Origin: Escherichia coli
Lineage (GTDB): Bacteria > Pseudomonadota > Gammaproteobacteria > Enterobacterales > Enterobacteriaceae
Reading direction: 5' to 3' (one strand)
DNA: 64,000 bases
NCBI RefSeq assembly: GCF_009931435.1
Contig: NZ_CP043414.1
Part shown: positions 5,444 to 53,028 of the stretch, piece after piece
Layout: each line of letters opens with the position of its first letter
Position numbering within the stretch: the stretch's first letter is position 1
Notes under the pieces: model-generated
What the model was told of the DNA's origin: nothing
Seen by the model: only the letters and a program-made list of their open reading frames with translations
The model's database searches: none
Program-made: the position numbers and the translations under genes

Positions 5444-6232
5444 ATGTCTTCAACACGTATGCCAGCATTGTTTTTAGGTCACGGTAGTCCGATGAACGTG
5501 CTGGAAGATAATTTGTATACCCGCAGCTGGCAGAAGTTGGGGATGACATTGCCACGCCCGCAAGCGATTGTGGTGGTTTCGGCTCACTGGTTTACCCGTG
5601 GAACAGGAGTGACCGCGATGGAGACGCCGCCCACGATTCATGATTTTGGCGGTTTTCCGCAGGCGCTGTACGACACCCATTATCCTGCTCCGGGTTCGCC
5701 TGCGCTGGCACAGCGTCTGGTTGAGCTGTTAGCGCCGGTCCCTGTGACGCTGGATAAAGAAGCCTGGGGCTTTGACCACGGTTCCTGGGGCGTGCTGATT
5801 AAGATGTATCCTGACGCCGATATCCCGATGGTGCAGTTGAGTATCGACAGTACCAAACCTGCCGCCTGGCACTTTGAGATGGGGCGTAAACTGGCGGCTC
5901 TGCGAGACGAAGGAATAATGTTGGTCGCCAGCGGTAACGTGGTGCATAACCTGCGTACGGTGAAGTGGCACGGTGATAGTTCACCGTATCCGTGGGCGAC
6001 GTCATTTAATGAGTATGTGAAAGCGAATCTGACGTGGCAAGGACCGGTAGAGCAGCATCCTCTGGTGAATTATCTCGACCATGAAGGTGGCGCGTTATCG
6101 AACCCAACGCCAGAGCACTATCTGCCGTTGTTGTATGTCTTAGGTGCGTGGGATGGGCAGGAGCCAATTACCATTCCGGTCGATGGTATAGAAATGGGCA
6201 GTTTAAGTATGTTGTCGGTGCAGATAGGCTAA
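5444..6232 (+). CDS. ygiD: 4,5-DOPA dioxygenase extradiol-like protein YgiD
   Basis: ORF track frame (5417..6232); start chosen at MSSTRMPALFLGHGSP (262 aa); alternative start at 5417. Confidence 0.85.
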   Translation: MSSTRMPALFLGHGSPMNVLEDNLYTRSWQKLGMTLPRPQAIVVVSAHWFTRGTGVTAMETPPTIHDFGGFPQALYDTHYPAPGSPALAQRLVELLAPVPVTLDKEAWGFDHGSWGVLIKMYPDADIPMVQLSIDSTKPAAWHFEMGRKLAALRDEGIMLVASGNVVHNLRTVKWHGDSSPYPWATSFNEYVKANLTWQGPVEQHPLVNYLDHEGGALSNPTPEHYLPLLYVLGAWDGQEPITIPVDGIEMGSLSMLSVQIG

Positions 6233-6269
6233 TAATTACCGGATGGCGAGTGCCATCCGGTATCATGGC

Positions 6270-7430
6270 TTATTCAACAAAAATATGTGGATAAAACCGA
6301 GACATATCCTGGGTGATCAATGCACGGTCTTCACGAATGCCAATTCCGGCAGGTTGATCGTTCACCAGCCAGCTACCAATCAGCATATAGCTATCGCCGA
6401 ATTTCGGTAACGGGTGGAATTGCTGAACAATCATCCCTTCTTCGCCATACGGACCTTCTGCTGCTTCAATGGTTTTGCCGTTCTCAATGATCGACACGTT
6501 TGCGCCTTCACGGGAGAAGATCGGTTTAACCACATATTTTTCCATTTGCGGATGATCATCTTCCGCAAAATAAGCGGGCAACAGGTTTGGGTGATTCGGG
6601 AACATCTCCCACAGCAGCGGTAGAAGCGCCTTGTTGGAGATAATGCTCTTCCACGCCGGTTCCAGCCAGCGTACGCCTGCATCCTCCAGCTTGGTTGAGA
6701 ACATCTCACGCAGCATAAATTCCCACGGATACAGCTTGAACAGGTTGGAAATCACCTGATCCTGTAAATCCGTGAACTGACCTTTTTCGCCTAAACCGAT
6801 ATCGTCGATGTAGAGGAATTCGGTAGCGATTTCAGCTTCGGTTGCGCAGTCCTGCAAATATTGAATGGTGCCGCGATCTTCCACTGTATCGCGACAGCAG
6901 GTGAGATGTAGCAATTGGAAGCCGAACTGCTCACGCAGCTCGACAAAGCGATCAATAAGCTTTTCTTGCAGACTGTTAAACTGGTCGCTGCCTTCCGGCA
7001 GGTTACCGGCGTTAAGCTGATCTTCCAGCCAGATCCACTGAAAGAATGCGGCTTCATACAGTGACGTTGGCGTATCGGCGTTATTTTCCAGAAGTTTAGG
7101 TTCGCCAGTACCATCCCACGCCAGATCAAGACGCGAATAAAGCGATGGCTGGTGAGTCAGCCATGACTGGCGCACAAAACTCCAGGTGTGTTTTGGAATG
7201 CGGAATTTGGTCATCAGCTCATCGCTGGCGATCACTTTTTCAACCACTTTCAGGCACATCTGGTGCAGTTCGGCGGTGACTTCTTCCAGCTTTTCAACCT
7301 GGGCGAGGGTCAACTTGTAGTAAGCATCTTCACACCAGTACGGTTCGCCGTACATGGTGTGAAAATTGAAACCGTATTCGTGGGCTTTTTCGCGCCAGTC
7401 CGGGCGCTCGGTAATACTGACTCTTTCCAT
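6270..7430 (-). CDS. ygiC: Glutathionylspermidine synthase-like protein YgiC
   Basis: ORF track 386 aa; paralogous to the Gss synthetase domain; in tolC-ygiBC operon context. Confidence 0.9.
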
Positions 7431-7435
7431 CGGTA

Positions 7436-8107
7436 TCAGCCACCCATTGAACGAGAAGAGGTGCCAGTTGCGCTACGCTGCATGGTGCTTTGTTTGGCAA
7501 CAGATTCACCAAAGCCACCGCGGGTAACGGTAGTGGTGGTCGCCGGTTTTGGTGCCATGGCTGTCTTCGGTACGGTCATGGTGCGGCCTGGCTGAGCTGC
7601 GCCATAGTTTTTACCGGTGGCATCAGTATATTTACCGTAAGCCGGGCTGGCTGGGTTTTTCGAGGAGAACAGCGGTTGTTGTGCAAAGCCCGCGCCGCCG
7701 CCCATCAAACGTCCCATCATGTAACCTGCCATCAGCGGCATCCAGAAACTCCCGCTGGATTGCTGGGCCTGCGCCTGATTTTCAGGTGCCATGCCAGCCT
7801 GGGCTGGTGCCTGCTGGCACTGACCTTCACCAAATTCGGCAACACAGTCTTCACGTGTGGCGTATTTCGGCGCAGTACGTTCGGCTTCTTTCAGCGCATT
7901 GTTATACGCAGTGGTACATTCTGCGCTTTTGCCTGGGTTTGCGGCTGAGCAGTCATCAGCATTTTGATACAGAGACACTGTCTCATCACTCTTTTCACAG
8001 CCTGCCAGCATAAAAACAGTGGCAACAGCAAGAGCGACAGGTGTCAGATGGCGTGCGCTCCAGTTTTTGCGGAACGATGCGTGGCGTATGGATTTTGTCC
8101 GTTTCAT
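7436..8107 (-). CDS. ygiB: UPF0441 protein YgiB (lipoprotein-like)
   Basis: ORF track frame; start chosen at [12 protein letters not shown] (223 aa); signal peptide with LAGC lipobox. Confidence 0.85.
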
Positions 8108-39204: not shown

Positions 39205-40161
39205 ATGCGACAAAATTGCGCACAATCAAATTGCCGCATTATTCCTAAGAAATTACGCGATATGAAACGTGAAGAGATTTGCCGCTTGCTAGCGGGTAAA
39301 GTTAATAAACTGAAAAATAAAGAAAATAGTTTATCAGAGCTATTGCCCGATGTGCGTTTGTTGTATGGCGAGACGCCTTTCGCACGTACGCCGGTGATGT
39401 ACGAGCCTGGCATCATAATTCTCTTTTCTGGGCATAAAATCGGTTATATCAATGAACGCGTGTTTCGTTATGATGCCAATGAATATCTGCTGCTGACGGT
39501 GCCGTTGCCGTTTGAGTGCGAAACTTATGCCACGTCAGAGGTACCGCTGGCAGGGTTGCGTCTCAATGTCGATGTTTTGCAGTTACAAGAGCTGTTGATG
39601 GACATTGGCGAAGATGAGCATTTTCGTCCGTCGATGGCAGCCAGCGGGATTAACTCTGCCACGTTATCAGAAGAGATTTTATGTGCGGCGGAGCGGTTAC
39701 TCGACGTGATGGAGCGACCGCTGGATGCGCGTATTCTCGGCAAACAGATCATCCGCGAAATTCTGTACTACGTGCTGACCGGACCTTGCGGTGGCGCGTT
39801 ACTGGCGCTGGTCAGCCGTCAGACCCACTTCAGCCTGATTAGTCGTGTGCTGAAACGAATTGAGAATAAATACACCGAAAACCTGAGCGTCGAGCAACTG
39901 GCGGCAGAAGCCAACATGAGCGTATCGGCGTTCCACCATAATTTTAAGTCTGTCACTAGCACCTCGCCGTTGCAGTATTTGAAGAATTACCGTCTGCATA
40001 AGGCGCGGATGATGATTATCCACGACGGCATGAAGGCCAGTGCAGCAGCGATGCGCGTCGGCTACGAAAGCGCGTCGCAATTTAGCCGTGAGTTTAAACG
40101 TTACTTTGGTGTGACACCGGGGGAGGATGCGGCAAGAATGCGGGCGATGCAGGGGAGTTAA
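39205..40161 (+). CDS. yqhC: AraC-family transcriptional activator YqhC, 318 aa
   Basis: ORF track frame; start chosen at [10 protein letters not shown] to match length; divergent from yqhD; C-terminal AraC HTH. Confidence 0.8.
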
Positions 40162-40200
40162 ATGCGTTCCCGGTACCGCAACCGGGAACGGGGGAAATTG

Positions 40201-40860
40201 TCAGGCGTTACAGTATTTCTTTTTAATCACCACAAACAGCGTGCCTAACAAGCCTGCAGTTAACAAGGCAATCGGCAGGATCATCAGGAACGTCATTACC
40301 TGATCTTCATGGCGTTTAACGAACGGAATCATACTTAAGGCATAGCCGAAACTGGTTACCACGCTGACCCACAGCAATCCGCTTAACCAGTTGAAAAACT
40401 GGAAGCGGCGGTTTGGCAGACCGGAAATTCCCGCCATGGTTGGCAGCAACGTACGGACAAATGCAAGAAAACGTCCAGCCAGCAGCGCCAGCAGACCGTG
40501 GCGGTCAAACATGCAGGTGGCGCGCTGGTGATATTTAGCGGGAAGCTGTGCCAGCCAGCCTTTCACCGTTTTGGTATTCCCTAACCAGCGCCCCTGAATA
40601 TAACTTAACCAGCAGCCCAAACTTGCTGCGGCGGTCAGAATCGCAATCGTTGGCAGAAAATCCATAACCCCCTGGGCAATCAATGCGCCTGCCAGTATCA
40701 ACAAGCTGTCGCCTGGCAAAAATGAGGCGGGCAGCAGGCCGTTTTCTAAAAACAGCGTGGCAAACATGACAAAGTAAACAACGCTAACAATATGAGGATC
40801 CGCCAGCGCGGCAAAGTCGTGTTGCCAGAGCGCAGCGATGATATCTTGAATAACAGCCAT
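40201..40860 (-). CDS. yghB: DedA-family inner membrane protein YghB
   Basis: ORF track 219 aa; polytopic membrane protein. Confidence 0.85.
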
Positions 40861-40998
40861 GGACTTTCCTGTGGAACAGCGTTTAAGCCTTTATCTGCCT
40901 ATTGTACTCCTGAATCACCCGGGACGCCTTGATCCCGGACGCAACAATTTAAGACTTTTCACAATTAAATGTCTGCAAATTTGTCCAAACTGGCAACA

Positions 40999-42186
40999 TT
41001 ACACAATTCGCGTAAAACCGGCGTCCAGATCGGCAATCAAATCATCGACATCTTCCAGACCAATATGCAGGCGAATCAAGGTCCCGCTAAAATCGATCTC
41101 GCCTTGTGGGCGAATGGCGGCGATATGTTCCGGTTGATTTGCCAGGATCAACGATTCATACCCGCCCCACGAATAGGCCATGCTGAATAAACTGAAGTTA
41201 TCCAGATAGTTCGCCAGCTCTTCATCATTGAGTTTTTTCTTAAGCACAAAGGAAAATAGCCCGCTGCTGCCTGTAAAGTCTCGTTTCCAGAATTCGTAGC
41301 CTTTACTGCCAGGCAGAGCAGGGTGGTTAACTCGCGCTACTTGCGGATGCTCTGCCAGCCATTCAGCCACTTTCAGACTGCTTTCATGATGTTGACGCAG
41401 GCGAACACCCAAAGTGCGTAGGCCACGGCTGGTTATATAGGCGGTATCGGCATCGACCATCTGCCCCATCAGATAGGCATTCTCCCGCAGCTGCTCCCAG
41501 CAACGGGCATTGCATACGGCAGTACCAATCATCGCATCTGAATGCCCCACCAGATATTTGGTGGCTGCCTGAATGGAAACATCGATGCCAAAATCCAGCG
41601 CCTTAAACAGCACACCGGCCGCCCAGGTGTTATCGATCATAATGATGGCATCTGGCACCACACTGCGCACGGCGGCAACAATCGCCGGAACGTCGTGGAC
41701 TTCCATGGTGATGGAGCCTGGCGATTCCAGAAACACGATTTTAGTGTTTGGCTGCACATGTTTAACGATATCTGCGCCAATCAGCGGATCAAACCACGAT
41801 GTCGTTACGCCCAGTTTGCTGAGGATTTTGCTACAGAAATCCTGACTCGGTTCATAGGCGGTGTTGGTCATCAACACATGATCGCCCTGTTCGACAAAAG
41901 CAAGAATGGAATTAGCAACCGCTGCTGCTCCGCAGGGGAACAGCACGCAGCCTGCGCCACCTTCCAGTTCGCACATCGCTTCTTGTAAGGAGAAATGGGT
42001 TAACGTTCCACGCCGTCCATAAAACAACTCGCCATTGGCGCGATTGCGTGTCGCGTGTTTTTTGGCTTCCACACTGTCAAAGACCAGCGAAGACGCGCGC
42101 TGAATCACGCTATTTACCGCGCCGAGAGTGTATTTTTTGCTGCGTCCTGCGTTCACCAGTTGAGTATCAAGCTTTTTGTCCGCCAT
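40999..42186 (-). CDS. metC: Cystathionine beta-lyase MetC, 395 aa
   Basis: ORF track frame; start at [18 protein letters not shown]-dependent enzyme. Confidence 0.9.
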
Positions 42187-42204
42187 GTCGGGATTCCTGT
42201 TTTT

Positions 42205-42228
42205 ATACGTCTGGATGTCTAAACTAGC
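42205..42228 (-). promoter_or_regulatory. Candidate tandem MetJ boxes upstream of metC
   Basis: atacgtct-ggatgtct-aaactagc, tandem 8-mers resembling the met-box AGACGTCT. Confidence 0.45.
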
Positions 42229-42350
42229 ATGAATATTCGCGGGCGCATCCTGAAGAATTAGCATAAAGCAGAAAATTTTCGCAAATGGCGTGCTGGTGAC
42301 TTTTTTACTGCGTAAACGCAAGGAAAAGAAAGCAAAGGTACGGCAGTATG

Positions 42351-42379
42351 CAAATAGTAATGAGAACGACTATCAATTC
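42351..42379 (+). promoter_or_regulatory. Candidate Fur box in exbB promoter
   Basis: caaatagtaatgagaacgactatcaattc, Fur-box-like AT-rich dyad upstream of exbB. Confidence 0.45.
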
Positions 42380-42437
42380 GACGTCGTTTTGATATTATTA
42401 TGCGCAGATTTTGTGACTTGCGTCCTGGAGATACACA

Positions 42438-43172
42438 GTGGGTAATAATTTAATGCAGACGGACCTTTCCGTCTGGGGTATGTATCAGCACGCCGATATT
42501 GTCGTTAAGTGCGTGATGATTGGGCTTATTTTGGCCTCCGTAGTCACTTGGGCAATCTTCTTCAGTAAGAGCGTTGAGTTCTTCAATCAGAAGCGTCGCC
42601 TGAAACGCGAACAGCAACTGCTGGCCCAAGCGCGTTCCTTGAACCAGGCCAACGATATCGCCGCTGATTTTGGTAGCAAAAGCTTAAGCCTGCATTTGCT
42701 CAATGAAGCGCAGGATGAGCTGGAACTGTCAGAAGGCAGCGACGATAACGAAGGTATTAAAGAACGTACCAGCTTCCGTCTGGAGCGTCGGGTCGCCGCC
42801 GTGGGGCGTCAAATGGGCCGCGGTAACGGCTACCTTGCAACCATCGGCGCGATTTCGCCGTTTGTGGGCCTCTTTGGTACGGTCTGGGGCATCATGAACA
42901 GCTTTATCGGTATTGCGCAAACGCAGACCACTAATCTGGCTGTCGTTGCGCCGGGTATCGCAGAAGCTCTGTTAGCAACGGCAATCGGCCTCGTGGCAGC
43001 GATTCCGGCGGTCGTTATCTATAACGTATTTGCACGTCAGATTGGCGGCTTTAAAGCGATGCTGGGTGATGTCGCAGCGCAGGTATTATTGCTGCAAAGT
43101 CGTGACCTGGATCTGGAAGCCAGCGCCGCTGCGCATCCGGTTCGTGTCGCCCAAAAATTACGCGCAGGATAA
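42438..43172 (+). CDS. exbB: TonB-system energiser ExbB
   Basis: ORF track 244 aa; MotA/TolQ/ExbB family. Confidence 0.9.
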   Translation: MGNNLMQTDLSVWGMYQHADIVVKCVMIGLILASVVTWAIFFSKSVEFFNQKRRLKREQQLLAQARSLNQANDIAADFGSKSLSLHLLNEAQDELELSEGSDDNEGIKERTSFRLERRVAAVGRQMGRGNGYLATIGAISPFVGLFGTVWGIMNSFIGIAQTQTTNLAVVAPGIAEALLATAIGLVAAIPAVVIYNVFARQIGGFKAMLGDVAAQVLLLQSRDLDLEASAAAHPVRVAQKLRAG

Positions 43173-43178
43173 TGTCCG

Positions 43179-43604
43179 ATGGCAATGCATCTTAACGAAA
43201 ACCTCGACGATAACGGCGAAATGCATGATATCAACGTGACGCCGTTTATCGACGTGATGTTGGTTCTGCTGATTATCTTTATGGTGGCAGCGCCGTTAGC
43301 GACGGTAGATGTGAAGGTGAACTTGCCTGCTTCTACCAGCACGCCGCAGCCTCGTCCGGAAAAACCGGTTTATCTGTCGGTGAAGGCGGACAACTCGATG
43401 TTTATCGGTAACGATCCGGTCACCGATGAAACAATGGTTACAGCGCTGAATGCGTTAACCGAAGGTAAGAAAGATACCACTATCTTCTTCCGTGCGGATA
43501 AAACTGTCGATTACGAGACGTTGATGAAGGTAATGGATACGCTGCATCAGGCGGGTTACCTGAAGATAGGTCTGGTCGGCGAAGAAACAGCCAAAGCGAA
43601 GTAA
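43179..43604 (+). CDS. exbD: TonB-system protein ExbD
   Basis: ORF track 141 aa; follows exbB. Confidence 0.9.
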   Translation: MAMHLNENLDDNGEMHDINVTPFIDVMLVLLIIFMVAAPLATVDVKVNLPASTSTPQPRPEKPVYLSVKADNSMFIGNDPVTDETMVTALNALTEGKKDTTIFFRADKTVDYETLMKVMDTLHQAGYLKIGLVGEETAKAK

Positions 43605-43611
43605 AGAGAAT

Positions 43612-43712
43612 TGCCTGATGCGCTACGCTTATCAGGCCTACAAAATCTATCGCAAGGTATTGAATTTGCATGAATTTGTAGGCCGGATAAGGCGTTCACG
43701 CCGCATCCGGCA
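43612..43712. repeat. REP/BIME palindromic units downstream of exbD
   Basis: gcctgatgcgctacgcttatcaggcctac and tgtaggccggataaggcgttcacgccgcatccggca, typical REP sequences. Confidence 0.75.
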
Positions 43713-43729
43713 AGAGTTATAAAGTACGA

Positions 43730-43766
43730 TGATGCCCGGTTGCTTTTCACAACCGGGCATTTTTTT
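43730..43766. terminator. Hairpin plus T-run between convergent exbD and yghA
   Basis: gcccggttgcttttcacaaccgggc followed by attttttt. Confidence 0.65.
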
Positions 43767-44649
43767 AGCCTAAATGCTCGCCGCCGCACACGCCGTGCAC
43801 TTCTGCGGTGACATAGCTCGACTCCTGACTTGCCAGATAAACATACACTGGGGCCAGCTCCGCCGGTTGTCCTGCACGTTTCATTGGTGTTTGCTGTCCA
43901 AACTGCGGGATCTTATCCTGCGTCTGTCCACCGGAAATTTGCAGTGCCGTCCAGATAGGGCCTGGTGCGACAATGTTCACTCGAATGCCTTTTTCTGCAA
44001 CCTGTTTTGCCAGGCCACGGCTGTAGTTCAGAATCGCCGCCTTCGTAGCCGCATAGTCCAGCAAATGTGGGCTTGGCTGGTACGCCTGGATTGACGAAGT
44101 GGTGATGATACTGGCACCTTTCGGTAGCAGGGGGATCGCTTCCTGGGTTAGCCAGAACAGCGCGAAAACGTTAATGGCAAAGGTCTTTTGAAACTGTTCG
44201 CTGGTGAGGTCTGCAATATCAGGAATGGCAACCTGTTTCCCGGCGACCAGCGCCATAATATCCAGCCCGCCTAACGCCTTGTGCGCTTCGTGAACCAGCG
44301 AACGGGCGAATTTCTCATCGCTTAAATCGCCTGGCAGCAGGACGGCTTTGCGTCCGCATTCTTCAATGATCTTTTTCACATCCTGAGCGTCTTCTTCTTC
44401 CACGGGAAGATAACTGATCGCTACGTCAGCGCCTTCACGCGCGTAAGCGATGGCGGCAGCACGACCGATTCCGGAATCGCCCCCTGTCACCAGTGCTTTA
44501 CGATCTTTCAGGCGACCGCTACCAACATAGGTTTTCTCGCCGCAATCCGGCACCGGTGTCATTTTCGCCTGGATGCCTGGCGTCGGTTGTTTCTGTTTGG
44601 GATATTCACCAGTGTAATACTGCGTGGTCGGGTCTTTTAAATGAGATAT
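43765..44649 (-). CDS. yghA: Short-chain dehydrogenase/reductase YghA (conserved N-terminal extension lacks ATG)
   Basis: ORF track 43765..44562 (265 aa, TGGDSGIG Rossmann motif); in-frame upstream 29 codons encode [29 protein letters not shown], with ATA where an ATG start is expected (44647..44649). Confidence 0.8.
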
Positions 44650-44770
44650 TGTTTTTCTCCCTTCAGGTTCAACGTCCTTTAAGGGTAGACGCTCTCGATG
44701 CGTTGATAAGGGAACCAGGAAGATCCCTAAACCTCGGATTTATGCGACAAAGGTTTAACGGATATGTTGA

Positions 44771-45334
<564 letters not shown>

Positions 45335-45341
45335 TCTGATT

Positions 45342-45361
45342 CGGGCGCGGTTCTCGCGCCC
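45342..45361. terminator. Bidirectional hairpin between convergent yqhA and gpr
   Basis: gggcgcggttctcgcgccc inverted repeat. Confidence 0.55.
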
Positions 45362-45373
45362 GTTATTAACAGG

Positions 45374-46414
45374 TCATTTATCGGAAGACGCCTGCCACAG
45401 ATTCAGCTCGCCATCGGCGATATGCTGATCAATCTGCGCCAGCTCCTCGGTGCTAAATGTCAGATTATTCAGCGCCTGGACATTCTCTTCCAGTTGCTCT
45501 GCACGGCTGGCACCGATCAATACCGACGTCACTCGCTCATCTTTCAGCAACCAGCTTAACGCCATTTGTGCCATTGATTGTCCACGCTGCTGTGCCATTT
45601 CATTCAATAACCGCAGGCTGTTGAGGTTGGCTTCGGTGAGCATTTTCGGCGTCAGACCACGAACTTTATTCCCTTCACGATGCATCCGTGAATCTTGCGG
45701 AATACCGTTGAGATATTTTCCGGTCAGCAATCCCTGAGCCAGAGGAGTAAAGGCAATGCAGCCCACGCCGTTATGTTGCAGGGTATCCAGCAGGCCGCTT
45801 TTATCCACCCAGCGGTTCAGCAAATTGTACGAAGGTTGATGAATTAACAGCGGAATTTTCCACTCGCGCAGCAACTCGACCATTTTTTGCGTCCGCTCTG
45901 GCGAGTAAGAGGAGATCCCGACATAAAGCGCCTTACCGCTTTGTACCGCATGAGCCAGCGCAGAGGCGGTTTCTTCCATCGGCGTATTTTCATCGACGCG
46001 ATGAGAGTAAAAGATATCGACATACTCAAGCCCCATCCGCTTCAGGCTTTGGTCGAGGCTGGCGAGCAGGTATTTACGTGAGCCGCCAGAGCCGTACGGG
46101 CCGGGCCACATATCGTATCCGGCTTTGGTAGAGATAATCAGTTCATCGCGATAAGCGGCAAAATCCTCCCGCAGCAGGCGACCAAAGTTCTCTTCTGCGC
46201 TTCCTGGAGGCGGCCCGTAATTGTTGGCTAAATCAAAGTGCGTAATGCCCAAATCAAACGCTTTGCGCAGGATCGCACGCTGTGATTCCAGTGCGTTAAC
46301 GTGACCGAAATTGTGCCATAAACCGAGCGATAACGCGGGCAGGCGTAAACCGCTTTTTCCGCAATAGCGGTATTGCATCTGCCCGTAACGTTCGGGATTC
46401 GCTAACCAGACCAT
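45374..46414 (-). CDS. gpr: L-glyceraldehyde 3-phosphate reductase (aldo-keto reductase), 346 aa
   Basis: ORF track frame; start at MVWLANPERYGQMQYRYCGKSGL. Confidence 0.9.
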   Translation of the reverse strand: MVWLANPERYGQMQYRYCGKSGLRLPALSLGLWHNFGHVNALESQRAILRKAFDLGITHFDLANNYGPPPGSAEENFGRLLREDFAAYRDELIISTKAGYDMWPGPYGSGGSRKYLLASLDQSLKRMGLEYVDIFYSHRVDENTPMEETASALAHAVQSGKALYVGISSYSPERTQKMVELLREWKIPLLIHQPSYNLLNRWVDKSGLLDTLQHNGVGCIAFTPLAQGLLTGKYLNGIPQDSRMHREGNKVRGLTPKMLTEANLNSLRLLNEMAQQRGQSMAQMALSWLLKDERVTSVLIGASRAEQLEENVQALNNLTFSTEELAQIDQHIADGELNLWQASSDK

Positions 46415-46567
46415 GACCTCTCCTTTCCACCATTCAATTTCGAAACAATGTTTCCAGTTTAGCGATTTACCAGGGGGGATCCCGTAGCATCGCTCACAGT
46501 GTGACGAAAAACTGGGCAAAAACACGTGCTTATGCTTTGCTTAAAAAAACACCAATTGAGGAGTGCA

Positions 46568-47458
46568 ATGATGCCGCGTCTGACCGCTAAAGATTTCCCA
46601 CAAGAGTTGCTGGATTACTACGACTATTACGCTCACGGGAAAATTTCGAAACGTGAGTTCCTCAACCTTGCGGCGAAGTATGCGGTGGGCGGGATGACGG
46701 CATTAGCGTTGTTTGATTTGCTCAAGCCAAATTATGCGCTGGCGACTCAGGTAGAGTTTACCGACCCGGAAATTGTTGCTGAGTACATCACGTATTCTTC
46801 GCCAAATGGTCACGGCGAGGTACGGGGTTATCTGGTGAAGCCCGCAAAGATGAGCGGCAAAACGCCAGCCGTGGTGGTGGTGCATGAGAATCGTGGACTG
46901 AATCCGTATATCGAAGATGTGGCACGGCGAGTAGCGAAGGCGGGGTATATCGCCCTGGCACCTGACGGCTTAAGTTCCGTTGGAGGTTATCCGGGTAATG
47001 ATGATAAAGGTCGTGAGCTGCAACAGCAGGTTGATCCAACCAAACTGATGAATGATTTCTTTGCCGCAATTGAGTTTATGCAACGCTATCCGCAAGCGAC
47101 AGGCAAAGTGGGTATTACCGGATTTTGCTATGGCGGTGGTGTATCGAACGCGGCGGCTGTCGCGTATCCGGAAATGGCCTGCGCGGTGCCGTTTTATGGT
47201 CGTCAGGCACCCACTGCCGATGTGGCGAAGATTGAAGCGCCTTTACTGCTCCACTACGCGGAACTGGATACCCGAATCAACGAGGGCTGGCCCGCTTACG
47301 AGGCGGCGTTGAAAGCCAATAATAAGGTCTATGAGGCGTATATCTATCCGGGGGTTAATCACGGATTCCATAATGATTCCACGCCCCGTTATGACAAATC
47401 TGCCGCCGATCTTGCCTGGCAAAGGACGCTGAAATGGTTCGATAAATATCTCTCCTGA
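46568..47458 (+). CDS. yghX: Dienelactone hydrolase-family protein YghX (intact)
   Basis: ORF track frame; start at ATG 46568 (MMPRLTAKDF) with SD gagga; uninterrupted 296 aa. Confidence 0.7.
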   Translation: MMPRLTAKDFPQELLDYYDYYAHGKISKREFLNLAAKYAVGGMTALALFDLLKPNYALATQVEFTDPEIVAEYITYSSPNGHGEVRGYLVKPAKMSGKTPAVVVVHENRGLNPYIEDVARRVAKAGYIALAPDGLSSVGGYPGNDDKGRELQQQVDPTKLMNDFFAAIEFMQRYPQATGKVGITGFCYGGGVSNAAAVAYPEMACAVPFYGRQAPTADVAKIEAPLLLHYAELDTRINEGWPAYEAALKANNKVYEAYIYPGVNHGFHNDSTPRYDKSAADLAWQRTLKWFDKYLS

Positions 47459-47576
47459 TAGGTTTATCTCTTACGGGATTACGTCTTAAACAAGCATGAA
47501 AAAATAGCGTGCGCAAAAGTCGTTCTTTGCCTAAAATATCGCTATATATGACAATATATAGCGAATGAGGTGAACG

Positions 47577-47864
47577 ATGAATAACCATTTTGGTAAAGGC
47601 TTAATGGCGGGATTAAAAGCAACGCATGCCGACAGTGCGGTTAATGTGACAAAATACTGTGCCGATTATAAACGCGGTTTTGTATTAGGCTACTCACACC
47701 GGATGTACGAAAAGACCGGAGATCGCCAGCTTAGCGCCTGGGAAGCGGGGATTCTGACGCGCCGCTATGGACTGGATAAAGAGATGGTAATGGATTTCTT
47801 TCGTGAGAATAATTCCTGTTCTACGTTGCGCTTTTTTATGGCCGGTTATCGCCTCGAAAATTGA
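47577..47864 (+). CDS. yghW: DUF2623 protein YghW
   Basis: ORF track 95 aa; position upstream of the hyb operon. Confidence 0.75.
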
Positions 47865-48052
47865 TCAAACATACGTATTATCTTGCTTTAATTAATTACA
47901 CTAATGCTTATTCCCTTCGTTTTAGTGCCCCGCCGCAGTATCATGATATCGATAACCATAATAAATGTGTGGTAAATGGCGCATCGATCGCATTATTGAT
48001 TTTGCGATTGAGGCAAAATATATGCCAGATCTTCGCAACGGAATAACTATAA

Positions 48053-49171
48053 ATGACTGGAGATAACACCCTCATCCATTCTCACGGCATTAACCGTCGT
48101 GATTTCATGAAGCTTTGTGCAGCATTAGCCGCCACCATGGGGTTAAGTAGCAAAGCCGCTGCAGAAATGGCCGAATCGGTTACTAACCCGCAGCGTCCGC
48201 CAGTTATCTGGATTGGCGCGCAGGAGTGCACCGGTTGTACGGAATCTCTGCTTCGTGCAACGCATCCAACGGTAGAAAACCTCGTGCTGGAGACTATCTC
48301 TCTCGAGTATCACGAAGTGCTTTCCGCCGCCTTCGGTCATCAGGTCGAAGAGAACAAACATAACGCTCTCGAGAAGTACAAAGGGCAGTATGTGTTAGTG
48401 GTGGATGGTTCCATCCCATTAAAAGATAACGGTATTTATTGCATGGTTGCCGGTGAGCCGATTGTGGATCACATCCGCAAAGCGGCGGAAGGCGCAGCAG
48501 CCATTATCGCTATCGGTTCCTGCTCTGCGTGGGGCGGTGTTGCCGCAGCTGGAGTTAACCCAACTGGCGCTGTCAGCCTGCAAGAAGTTCTGCCGGGCAA
48601 AACCGTTATCAACATTCCGGGCTGCCCACCGAACCCGCACAACTTCCTCGCGACCGTTGCGCACATCATCACTTACGGCAAACCGCCGAAACTGGATGAC
48701 AAAAACCGTCCGACTTTCGCCTATGGCCGTCTGATTCACGAACACTGCGAACGCCGCCCGCACTTCGATGCTGGTCGTTTTGCCAAAGAGTTCGGTGATG
48801 AAGGCCACCGCGAAGGCTGGTGCCTGTACCACCTCGGCTGTAAAGGGCCAGAAACTTACGGCAACTGCTCAACGCTGCAATTCTGCGATGTTGGTGGTGT
48901 GTGGCCGGTGGCGATTGGTCACCCGTGCTATGGCTGTAACGAAGAAGGTATCGGCTTCCATAAAGGCATCCATCAGCTTGCCAACGTCGAAAACCAGACT
49001 CCGCGTTCGCAGAAACCGGATGTTAACGCTAAAGAGGGCGGCAACGTCTCTGCGGGCGCTATCGGTTTGCTCGGCGGTGTGGTTGGGCTGGTTGCCGGTG
49101 TCAGCGTGATGGCGGTGCGTGAACTGGGTCGTCAGCAAAAGAAAGATAACGCTGACTCACGGGGAGAATAA
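48053..49171 (+). CDS. hybO: Hydrogenase 2 small subunit
   Basis: ORF track 372 aa; Tat signal RRDFMK; [NiFe] hydrogenase small-subunit cysteine clusters. Confidence 0.95.
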
Positions 49172-49173
49172 CC

Positions 49174-50160
49174 GTGAACAGACGTAATTTTATTAAAGCA
49201 GCCTCCTGCGGGGCATTGCTGACGGGCGCGTTGCCGTCTGTCAGTCATGCGGCTGCTGAAAACCGCCCGCCAATTCCGGGATCGCTGGGGATGTTGTACG
49301 ACTCGACGCTGTGCGTAGGCTGCCAGGCTTGCGTCACTAAGTGTCAGGATATCAACTTCCCTGAACGTAACCCACAAGGGGAACAGACCTGGTCGAACAA
49401 CGACAAACTGTCGCCGTACACCAATAACATCATTCAGGTGTGGACCAGCGGCACGGGAGTCAACAAAGACCAGGAAGAGAACGGCTATGCGTACATTAAG
49501 AAACAGTGTATGCACTGCGTCGATCCGAACTGTGTCTCAGTGTGCCCGGTTTCTGCGCTGAAAAAAGATCCGAAAACCGGCATTGTCCATTACGACAAAG
49601 ATGTGTGCACCGGCTGCCGTTACTGCATGGTTGCCTGTCCGTACAACGTGCCGAAGTACGACTACAACAACCCGTTTGGTGCGCTGCATAAGTGTGAGCT
49701 TTGCAACCAGAAAGGTGTGGAACGTCTCGATAAAGGCGGTCTGCCTGGCTGCGTAGAAGTGTGCCCGGCGGGCGCGGTGATTTTTGGTACGCGTGAAGAG
49801 CTGATGGCGGAGGCGAAAAAACGTCTGGCGCTGAAGCCTGGCAGCGAATACCACTATCCGCGTCAGACGCTGAAATCTGGCGACACTTACCTGCATACGG
49901 TGCCGAAATATTATCCGCATCTGTACGGCGAGAAAGAGGGCGGCGGTACTCAGGTACTGGTACTGACGGGTGTGCCTTATGAAAATCTCGACCTGCCGAA
50001 ACTGGACGATCTTTCTACTGGTGCGCGTTCCGAACATGTTCAACACACCCTGTATAAAGGCATGATGCTACCACTGGCTGTGCTGGCGGGCTTAACCGTG
50101 CTGGTTCGTCGCAACACCAAAAACGACCATCACGACGGAGGAGACGATCATGAGTCATGA
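49174..50160 (+). CDS. hybA: Hydrogenase 2 4Fe-4S ferredoxin-type component
   Basis: ORF track 328 aa; multiple CxxCxxC motifs; Tat-like signal. Confidence 0.9.
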
Positions 50161-51328
50161 TCCACAACCGCTGGGCGGCAAAATCATCAGTAAACCGGTC
50201 ATGATTTTTGGACCGTTAATCGTCATCTGTATGCTCCTGATTGTGAAGCGTCTGGTGTTCGGTCTGGGCTCTGTCTCTGACCTGAACGGCGGCTTCCCGT
50301 GGGGCGTGTGGATCGCGTTTGACCTGTTGATCGGCACCGGCTTTGCCTGTGGCGGCTGGGCGCTGGCGTGGGCGGTATACGTCTTTAATCGTGGGCAATA
50401 CCATCCGCTGGTGCGTCCGGCACTGTTGGCAAGTCTGTTTGGTTACTCACTGGGTGGCTTGTCGATCACTATCGACGTTGGTCGCTACTGGAACCTGCCG
50501 TACTTCTACATTCCGGGTCACTTCAACGTGAACTCGGTACTGTTCGAGACGGCGGTCTGTATGACCATCTACATCGGCGTGATGGCACTGGAGTTTGCTC
50601 CGGCACTGTTTGAACGTCTGGGCTGGAAAGTGTCGCTACAGCGTCTGAACAAGGTGATGTTCTTCATCATCGCGCTCGGTGCGCTGCTGCCAACTATGCA
50701 CCAGTCTTCAATGGGGTCGCTGATGATCTCGGCGGGCTACAAGGTGCATCCACTGTGGCAAAGCTATGAAATGTTGCCGCTGTTCTCGCTGCTGACGGCG
50801 TTCATCATGGGCTTCTCGATTGTCATCTTTGAAGGTTCGCTGGTGCAGGCGGGTCTGCGTGGCAACGGTCCGGATGAAAAGAGCCTGTTCGTCAAGCTGA
50901 CCAACACTATCAGCGTGCTGCTGGCGATTTTTATCGTGCTGCGCTTTGGCGAGCTGATCTATCGCGACAAGCTGTCGTTAGCGTTTGCCGGTGACTTCTA
51001 CTCCGTGATGTTCTGGATTGAAGTCCTGCTGATGCTCTTCCCGCTGGTTGTTCTGCGTGTGGCGAAGCTGCGTAATGATTCCCGCATGCTGTTCCTGTCA
51101 GCACTGAGCGCACTGTTAGGTTGTGCAACCTGGCGTCTGACCTATTCGCTGGTGGCATTCAACCCGGGCGGCGGTTACGCCTACTTCCCGACCTGGGAAG
51201 AACTGTTGATTTCTATTGGTTTTGTGGCTATTGAGATTTGCGCTTACATCGTACTCATTCGTCTACTGCCGATACTTCCTCCTTTAAAACAAAACGATCA
51301 TAATCGTCATGAGGCGAGCAAAGCATGA
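50150..51328 (+). CDS. hybB: Hydrogenase 2 integral membrane subunit
   Basis: ORF track 392 aa; polytopic. Confidence 0.9.
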
Positions 51329-53028
51329 GCCAGAGAATTACTATTGATCCGGTAACCCGAATTGAAGGGCATTTACGCATCGATTGCGAAATCGAAAATG
51401 GCGTCGTTTCGAAAGCATGGGCTTCCGGTACCATGTGGCGCGGCATGGAAGAGATCGTGAAAAACCGCGATCCGCGCGATGCATGGATGATTGTGCAACG
51501 TATCTGTGGCGTATGCACCACCACTCACGCGCTCTCTTCCGTTCGTGCGGCAGAGAGTGCGCTGAATGTCGACGTTCCGGTTAACGCGCAATACATCCGT
51601 AACATCATTCTGGCTGCGCACACCACGCATGACCATATCGTTCATTTCTATCAGCTTTCGGCGCTGGACTGGGTGGACATCACTTCTGCACTGCAAGCTG
51701 ATCCAACCAAAGCCTCCGAAATGCTGAAAGGCGTTTCGACCTGGCATCTGAACAGCCCGGAAGAGTTCACCAAAGTTCAGAACAAGATCAAAGATCTGGT
51801 TGCCAGCGGTCAGTTGGGTATTTTCGCCAATGGCTACTGGGGTCACCCGGCAATGAAACTGCCGCCGGAAGTGAACCTGATTGCGGTAGCGCACTACCTG
51901 CAAGCGCTGGAGTGCCAGCGTGACGCTAACCGCGTCGTGGCGCTGCTGGGCGGTAAAACGCCGCACATTCAGAACCTGGCGGTAGGTGGTGTCGCGAACC
52001 CAATCAACCTCGACGGTTTGGGCGTGCTGAACCTTGAGCGCCTGATGTACATCAAGTCTTTCATCGACAAACTGAGCGACTTTGTTGAGCAGGTTTACAA
52101 GGTTGATACCGCGGTTATCGCCGCGTTCTATCCGGAATGGCTGGAGCGTGGTAAAGGTGCGGTGAACTACCTGAGCGTGCCGGAATTCCCGACCGACAGC
52201 AAAAACGGTAGCTTCCTGTTCCCGGGCGGCTACATTGAGAATGCGGATCTGTCCTCGTATCGTCCGATCACTTCCCATTCCGATGAATATCTGATCAAAG
52301 GGATTCAGGAAAGTGCGAAGCACTCCTGGTATAAAGACGAAGCGCCGCAGGCACCGTGGGAAGGTACCACCATTCCGGCTTACGACGGTTGGTCTGACGA
52401 CGGCAAATATTCCTGGGTGAAATCACCGACTTTCTACGGCAAAACGGTAGAAGTGGGTCCGCTGGCTAACATGCTGGTGAAACTGGCGTCAGGACGCGAG
52501 TCTACCCAGAACAAACTGAATGAAATCGTTGCGATTTATCAGAAACTGACTGGCAACACGCTGGAAGTGGCGCAGCTGCACTCCACGCTGGGCCGTATCA
52601 TTGGTCGTACCGTTCACTGCTGCGAATTGCAGGATATCCTGCAAAACCAATACAGTGCGCTGATCACCAATATCGGCAAAGGCGATCACACCACCTTTGT
52701 GAAACCGAACATTCCGGCAACGGGTGAGTTCAAAGGTGTTGGCTTCCTTGAAGCACCGCGCGGTATGCTCTCTCACTGGATGGTGATTAAAGACGGTATC
52801 ATCAGCAACTATCAGGCAGTTGTTCCATCAACCTGGAACTCTGGCCCGCGTAACTTCAATGATGACGTTGGTCCTTACGAGCAGTCGCTGGTGGGTACAC
52901 CGGTTGCCGATCCGAATAAACCGCTGGAAGTGGTGCGTACCATTCACTCCTTCGACCCGTGCATGGCCTGTGCGGTACACGTAGTGGATGCCGACGGCAA
53001 CGAAGTGGTTTCAGTGAAGGTTCTGTAA
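51325..53028 (+). CDS. hybC: Hydrogenase 2 large subunit
   Basis: ORF track 567 aa; N-terminal RICGVCTTTH and C-terminal DPCMACAVH Ni-binding motifs. Confidence 0.95.
   Translation: MSQRITIDPVTRIEGHLRIDCEIENGVVSKAWASGTMWRGMEEIVKNRDPRDAWMIVQRICGVCTTTHALSSVRAAESALNVDVPVNAQYIRNIILAAHTTHDHIVHFYQLSALDWVDITSALQADPTKASEMLKGVSTWHLNSPEEFTKVQNKIKDLVASGQLGIFANGYWGHPAMKLPPEVNLIAVAHYLQALECQRDANRVVALLGGKTPHIQNLAVGGVANPINLDGLGVLNLERLMYIKSFIDKLSDFVEQVYKVDTAVIAAFYPEWLERGKGAVNYLSVPEFPTDSKNGSFLFPGGYIENADLSSYRPITSHSDEYLIKGIQESAKHSWYKDEAPQAPWEGTTIPAYDGWSDDGKYSWVKSPTFYGKTVEVGPLANMLVKLASGRESTQNKLNEIVAIYQKLTGNTLEVAQLHSTLGRIIGRTVHCCELQDILQNQYSALITNIGKGDHTTFVKPNIPATGEFKGVGFLEAPRGMLSHWMVIKDGIISNYQAVVPSTWNSGPRNFNDDVGPYEQSLVGTPVADPNKPLEVVRTIHSFDPCMACAVHVVDADGNEVVSVKVL

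Follow-up and report, generated by a model that had tools for sequence, protein, structure and literature searches.

An Intact yghX Gene for a Dienelactone Hydrolase-Family Protein in Escherichia coli, and the Deletions That Disrupt It in K-12

The window analyzed here, a stretch of 64,000 nucleotides of Escherichia coli DNA (contig NZ_CP043414.1 of assembly GCF_009931435.1), carries the gene yghX on its plus strand, with gpr (yghZ) on the minus strand to one side and yghW and hybO on the plus strand to the other (Table 1). The reading frame runs unbroken to a TGA stop codon at 47456–47458, and the original prediction of a single uninterrupted open reading frame behind a good Shine-Dalgarno sequence is borne out on both points. 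That prediction had placed the gene at 46568–47458 and given its product about 296 amino acids; the 3′ end stands, and the 5′ end belongs 3 nt further in. The gene begins with tandem ATG codons (CAATGATG), the first of which opens a frame of 296 codons and the second, at 46571, a frame of 295. The second is favored, and the first rejected as the probable start, because four lines of information concur: in the five E. coli lineages compared, ATG occurs at 46568 only in the window and in strain RMDEC465, the codon being ACG in K-12, ST131, and O157; the Shine-Dalgarno sequence GAGGAG lies 7 nt from the ATG at 46571 and only 4 nt from the one at 46568; in the PGAP annotation of RMDEC465 the orthologue has its start at the position corresponding to 46571; and YqhI, the chromosomally epitope-tagged K-12 product of the same start, begins MPRL (PMC6001520). 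The true start is almost certainly 46571. The tandem arrangement itself is a change of ACG to ATG, gained in the lineage of the window and RMDEC465 directly ahead of the conserved start. A longer frame of 310 amino acids with a GTG start at 46526, taken from a mechanical list of open reading frames, is an over-extension that runs into the divergent promoter region. The mechanical frame for gpr (45374–46525, minus strand) likewise has a GTG start, at 46525, and would give 383 amino acids; since the annotated gpr start corresponds to position 46414 (346 amino acids), the region upstream of yghX is intergenic and does not overlap gpr.

Table 1. Features of the yghX locus, with positions in the 64,000-nucleotide window
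Feature	Position	Strand	Basis or remarks
Shine-Dalgarno sequence GAGGAG	46558..46563	+	Sequence itself; invariant in 5 E. coli lineages
Extra in-frame upstream ATG, lineage-specific, probably not the start	46568..46570	+	5-lineage comparison
yghX coding sequence, YghX family hydrolase (295 codons plus TGA)	46571..47458	+	Open reading frame; NF041440; Pfam DLH and YqhI-like
YqhI-like segment, residues 1–36 (the in-frame part of K-12 YqhI)	46571..46678	+	Pfam PF23678, E = 1.5e-21
Tat-signal-like segment, residues 24–58 (putative)	46640..46744	+	38-sequence alignment; inferred
AT deleted in K-12, first frameshift, after codon 36	46680..46681	+	Pairwise alignment
Dienelactone-hydrolase-family alpha/beta-hydrolase domain, residues 84–294	46820..47452	+	Pfam PF01738; AlphaFold2 model against 4ZV9
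C deleted in K-12, second frameshift, near codon 157	47041	+	Placement arbitrary within a CC run
Predicted nucleophile Cys186 (TGC), in G-F-C-Y-G	47126..47128	+	Aligns with ClcD Cys123; Cys in 35 of 38 homologues
Predicted triad acid Asp233 (GAT)	47267..47269	+	Aligns with ClcD Asp171; invariant, 38 of 38
Predicted triad base His264 (CAC)	47360..47362	+	Aligns with ClcD His202; His in 35 of 38

A scan of 46300–47700 for promoters and terminators gave nothing on the plus strand upstream of yghX above the expectation from shuffled sequence, and no Rfam family matched anywhere in 40000–52000. The divergent intergenic region between gpr and yghX, 156 bp long and otherwise almost invariant, contains a cluster of nine nucleotide differences within 33 bp (46468–46500) that sets the lineage of the window and RMDEC465 apart from K-12, ST131, and O157. 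The cluster has the appearance of a short patch that is alternative or was acquired by recombination; examined for RNA structure on both strands, it yielded none that was significant. On the other side of the gene, a perfect 11-bp inverted repeat, TCGCTATATAT-GACA-ATATATAGCGA, occupies 47539–47564, 12 nt ahead of the point where yghW starts (47577), and K-12 has exactly the same sequence there. The loop and the right arm of the repeat overlap the −10 element (GACAAT) of a constitutive promoter that Shimada et al. (2014) list for yghW, and RNA of the segment 47450–47580 folds with a z-score of −4.35, pairing the segment around the yghW Shine-Dalgarno sequence. The repeat might serve as an operator for a repressor, or it might form a hairpin in the 5′ untranslated region.

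The product belongs to a named family. It matches the NCBIfam model NF041440 (YghX family hydrolase) over the whole of the profile (positions 1–292 of 292) with 585.3 bits against a cutoff of 460 (E = 1.8e-176), and the Pfam DLH model PF01738, also over its full length (1–217 of 217), with 164 bits against a 21-bit cutoff (E = 5e-48). Together with the low ratio of non-synonymous to synonymous change described below, these matches show yghX to be a genuine gene and not a frame left open by chance. An AlphaFold2 model of the protein (pLDDT 96 overall, pTM 0.93) superposes on PDB 4ZV9, from E. coli O157:H7 Sakai, with a TM score of 0.99 and an rmsd of 1.0 Å, and on the dienelactone hydrolase ClcD of Pseudomonas (PDB 1DIN) with a TM score of about 0.84 on the target. 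The 4ZV9 sequence is 97%–98% identical to the window protein over residues 59–294.

Residues equivalent to those of ClcD were identified in a HMMER alignment to 4U2C, a C123S variant, and are given in 1DIN numbering; conservation was read from 38 full-length representatives of the family that share 35%–98% identity. The catalytic triad so predicted is Cys186–Asp233–His264, as in the DLH family. It had been suggested that the sequence be checked for a conserved Ser-Asp-His triad: a conserved triad is indeed present, but its nucleophile is cysteine rather than serine. A serine hydrolase of the G-x-S-x-G type was thus considered and rejected, the nucleophile position being occupied by the TGC codon of Cys186. 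YghX shares with ClcD the alpha/beta-hydrolase fold, the Cys-His-Asp triad, and equivalents of Glu36 (Glu106) and Arg81 (Arg148). The two proteins are only about 25% identical, however; ClcD lacks the 60-residue N-terminal extension of YghX, and the substrate-binding Arg206 of ClcD is lost, its place being taken by Asn268, a residue that is Asn in 32 of the 38 homologues.

That E. coli can carry an intact yghX is already known, since thousands of genome annotations include the intact allele and a crystal structure has been solved; the observation is correct but routine. The exact 295-residue protein is present in the NCBI collection as "MULTISPECIES: YghX family hydrolase [Escherichia]" on 10 contigs, and the cluster formed around it at 90% identity has 5,276 member sequences. 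In strain RMDEC465 the same gene (product WP_001360974.1) occupies the same locus, in the order gpr (−), yghX (+), yghW (+), hybO (+), and its protein is one residue apart from that of the window (Leu in place of Met202). Set against the known YghX family, the window allele differs in nothing of substance: it has Ser76, Met202, and, 3 nt ahead of the start, the additional in-frame ATG. Across the 1.2-kb yghX segment, identity to RMDEC465 is 99.9%. Over the larger segment 40000–52000, the best identity found among 5,426 complete E. coli genomes is 98.6%, so that the lineage, or mosaic, to which the window belongs is not closely represented in that collection. Matches to the same 12-kb query had a median of 38 per genome, and the query therefore contains short dispersed repeats, probably of the REP type.

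K-12 is different. The original prediction described yghX as a disrupted pseudogene there, which is right, and named an identical intact frame in K-12 as the finding that would overturn it; K-12 has no such frame. The annotation of MG1655 has, between gpr and yghW, a pseudogene yghX (b4658, formerly yghX/yghY) and a small-protein gene, yqhI (b4755). Pairwise alignment of window positions 46400–47600 with K-12 gave 97% nucleotide identity and exactly two gaps, both of them frameshifting deletions in K-12, of 2 bp and 1 bp, that lie about 360 nt apart. The orthologous loci have in common the promoter-proximal region, the Shine-Dalgarno sequence, and the first 36 codons; past that point about 120 codons of K-12 are out of frame, with 10 stop codons among them, and since the net change is −3 the frame is restored after the second deletion. 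The restoration is a coincidence. Translation from the shared start ends in K-12 after 47 amino acids, and this product, the only one made from the locus, is YqhI. Apart from the deletions, only three substitutions that alter an amino acid separate the K-12 pseudogene from the window, and this implies a recent inactivation. The promoter and start that K-12 has in common with intact strains are active: YqhI is made, as seen by chromosomal tagging (PMC6001520), and ribosome profiling and RNA-seq have shown that starvation for Mg2+ induces yqhI without a need for PhoQP (PMC11429745). By analogy, we infer that full-length YghX would be produced at low Mg2+ in strains like the source of the window.

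K-12 is not alone in carrying the broken allele. The locus is part of the E. coli core genome, being present in 5,415 of the 5,426 complete genomes (coverage of at least 80% of a 1.2-kb query), and exact 80-mers spanning the K-12 junctions were found in 1,247 of the 5,426 (23%) for the 2-bp deletion and in 1,197 (22%) for the 1-bp deletion. Among the carriers are laboratory derivatives of K-12 and also natural isolates, whose sources were humans, pigs, sheep, and river water. In a sample of 39 full-length matches drawn at even steps from the ranking of genome matches, 10 were 2–3 bp shorter than the window. In one natural isolate, strain 2018-02-2CC, the gene (472–1357 of its sequence) shares the 2-bp deletion exactly but lacks the 1-bp deletion, and is annotated as frameshifted; the decay was therefore stepwise, and the 2-bp event came first. 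Loss of the gene in K-12 and in approximately 22%–23% of genomes accordingly began with the 2-bp deletion after codon 36 and continued with the 1-bp deletion, leaving YqhI as the expressed remainder. Since the deletion alleles account for only about 22%–23% of genomes, most E. coli have the intact gene; the intact 295-codon form occurs in ST131 (phylogroup B2), O157:H7, and RMDEC465.

The intact gene is the ancestral form. Citrobacter koseri has an orthologue of 295 amino acids with 91% identity, in the order metC-exbBD-...-gpr(−)-yghX(+)-[MCP]-yghW-hybOA, and collinear orthologues of 294–298 amino acids with 85%–88% identity are found in Pseudescherichia, Enterobacter, Kosakonia, and Leclercia. 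The same neighbors, gpr on one side and yghW and the hyb genes on the other, flank yghX in the window, K-12, RMDEC465, ST131, O157, and C. koseri. C. koseri also has a gene for a methyl-accepting chemotaxis protein between yghX and yghW (6105–7745 of its contig), which is missing from E. coli. Substitutions counted by the method of Nei and Gojobori are largely silent: 35 synonymous and 6 non-synonymous between the window and ST131 (pN/pS 0.05), 22 and 5 between the window and O157 (0.07), and 160 and 43 between the window and C. koseri (0.08, at a saturated pS of 0.77). Ratios of 0.05–0.08 mean that yghX is under strong purifying selection. The proposal that this strain retains the functional ancestral gene is thus supported by synteny with C. 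koseri, by purifying selection, and by the presence of the predicted catalytic residues.

We are confident that 46571–47458 is best explained as an intact ancestral yghX, coding for a 295-residue alpha/beta hydrolase of the DLH branch, and other readings of the gene and of its chemistry have to be weighed against this one. The frame might be open and the gene dead or dispensable all the same, an early-stage pseudogene not yet hit. Loss of yghX has carried no obvious cost in K-12 and in more than 1,200 other genomes, the K-12 locus routinely serves as a neutral site for integration (e.g., PMC7677707), the literature gave no phenotype or activity for YghX, and the window allele carries both Ser76, shared with RMDEC465 where the other E. 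coli alleles compared have Pro, and Met202, where all other alleles compared have Leu. Against these points stand the low pN/pS, which holds among the intact alleles as well as toward C. koseri, the completeness of the catalytic residues, the conservation of the Shine-Dalgarno sequence and start, the recurrence of the identical protein on several contigs, and the persistence of the locus in nearly every complete genome; we regard a dead gene as improbable. Nor does YghX look like a true dienelactone hydrolase (carboxymethylenebutenolidase, EC 3.1.1.45) of chloroaromatic or beta-ketoadipate catabolism, an assignment that the Pfam match, the fold and triad held in common with ClcD, and the name carboxymethylenebutenolidase given by some sources to its homologues would invite. 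The low identity to ClcD and the Asn268 at the position of Arg206 speak against it, even though the equivalent of Arg81 is kept, and so does the setting: no catechol or muconate genes are nearby, the neighbors being gpr, yqhA, yghA, exbBD, yghW, and hybOA, and yghX, unlike ClcD, has no setting in a catabolic operon. E. coli is not known to have a chlorocatechol pathway, and a periplasmic location of YghX, if it has one, would part the enzyme from a cytoplasmic pathway. We therefore judge such a role very improbable. The description of the gene as one for a dienelactone hydrolase holds for the family and fails for the ClcD-type Arg206 and the catabolic cluster, and the physiological substrate is probably something other than dienelactone.

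A further and older proposal, made by Rychlewski et al. solely from a GXCXG motif and cited in a review by Reusch (PMC3709699), is that YghX is a polymerase of short-chain conjugated poly-(R)-3-hydroxybutyrate (cPHB); a depolymerase of the same polymer may be considered with it. The motif is present (GFCYG), 19 of the 38 family members weakly resemble the catalytic domain of an extracellular scl-PHA depolymerase in NCBIfam (E = 4.7e-5, 23 bits, for YghX), and a periplasmic location would fit cPHB-synthesizing activity that is reported to be mostly periplasmic (PMC3709699). The depolymerase score is nevertheless far under the family cutoff of 150 and is of a kind generic to alpha/beta hydrolases, and K-12, the organism of the cPHB studies, is without a functional YghX; we consider it just as improbable as the catabolic role. 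In our search of the literature we found no published enzymatic activity of YghX. When 12 DLH enzymes were assayed side by side, the purified 4ZV9 protein (EcoDLH) did not detectably act on paraoxon or FDDEP, two phosphotriesters that are non-native substrates (bioRxiv 10.1101/2025.10.30.685675), and the genomic context (gpr, yghW, hyb) offered no clue to a pathway. If YghX works as its homologues do, catalysis would depend on the Cys186–His264–Asp233 triad, in which the cysteine thiolate would attack the carbonyl of an ester, lactone, or thioester to form an acyl-thioenzyme that water then hydrolyzes, with Glu106, in the position of ClcD Glu36, placed to hold the resting cysteine.

The N-terminal extension may supply the one mildly novel point beyond existing annotation, a possible Tat signal of a KR type. 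Residues 24–58 resemble Tat signals such as that of the neighboring HybO in having a motif that partly matches S/T-R-R-x-F-L-K, a weakly to moderately hydrophobic h-region rich in Gly, Ala, and Thr (residues 31–51, mean Kyte-Doolittle hydropathy 1.29), a basic residue in the c-region, and an AxA sequence. In E. coli the motif reads S-K27-R28-E-F-L-N, against a homologue consensus of R-R-x-F-L; the columns of K27 and R28 hold RR in 29 of the 38 representatives and the second Arg in 35, and Phe is found at the position of F30 in 33. The c-region contains Pro and Lys52 and is followed by A56-L-A58 directly before the catalytic domain (A58 in 29 of 38). E. coli YghX departs from ordinary Tat signals in having KR for RR, in the approximately 25 conserved residues that precede the motif, and in the confidence with which AlphaFold2 models the segment. 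The combination of this confident fold with conserved residues ahead of the motif is not accounted for by a simple model of a cleaved signal.

Two readings of this extension stand close together. In one, residues 24–58 are a Tat signal in a natural variant of the Enterobacteriaceae and YghX is periplasmic, for which we would put the chances at nearly even. The Tat system of E. coli accepts signals with KR in place of RR. The fuller form of the proposal, somewhat short of an even chance in our estimation, is that non-K-12 YghX is an overlooked periplasmic Tat substrate with a KR signal, whose conserved pre-segment would serve in chaperone binding or docking and whose orphaned n-region would be YqhI; residues 1–58 would then export the folded enzyme to the periplasm. 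In the other reading, to which we give about the same weight as to that fuller proposal, YghX is functional but cytoplasmic, its first 60 residues are a folded extension, perhaps a helical cap or lid, and the likeness to Tat signals is vestigial or coincidental. The predicted structure is in keeping with a folded extension, residues 1–60 forming three short helices at pLDDT 89–95 in a model whose pTM is high, and so is the nature of residues 1–36, a conserved Pfam family (PF23678, YqhI-like) present in 30 of the 38 representatives; conservation of some 25 residues ahead of the KR/RR motif across the family is unusual for a signal n-region. The KR of the enterobacterial sequences points the same way, as does the result that none of the Pfam and NCBIfam Tat models matched the N-terminus of E. 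coli YghX. Yet most distant homologues combine RRxFL with AxA and with a hydrophobic stretch some 18 residues long, the Tat-signal model TIGR01409 matches 6 of the 38, and the Rieske (UCR_Fe-S_N) and formate dehydrogenase (formate_TAT) Tat models match a few further members. The 4ZV9 chain, moreover, begins to match YghX at residue 59, and since the catalytic domain was crystallized without residues 1–59, the extension is dispensable for folding. In the literature library searched, no paper connects the Tat system with YghX or with a similar DLH. Should YghX prove to be exported by Tat, its absence from the classical lists of E. coli Tat substrates would be explained by their having been drawn from K-12, in which the gene is broken.

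It follows that K-12 is not the reference state at this locus, and that most E. coli encode a conserved and constrained YghX. Catalogues of enzymes that are based on K-12 miss this protein, as would catalogues of Tat substrates if it is exported. YqhI, which has been studied as a stress-induced small protein, is the expressed stump of yghX.
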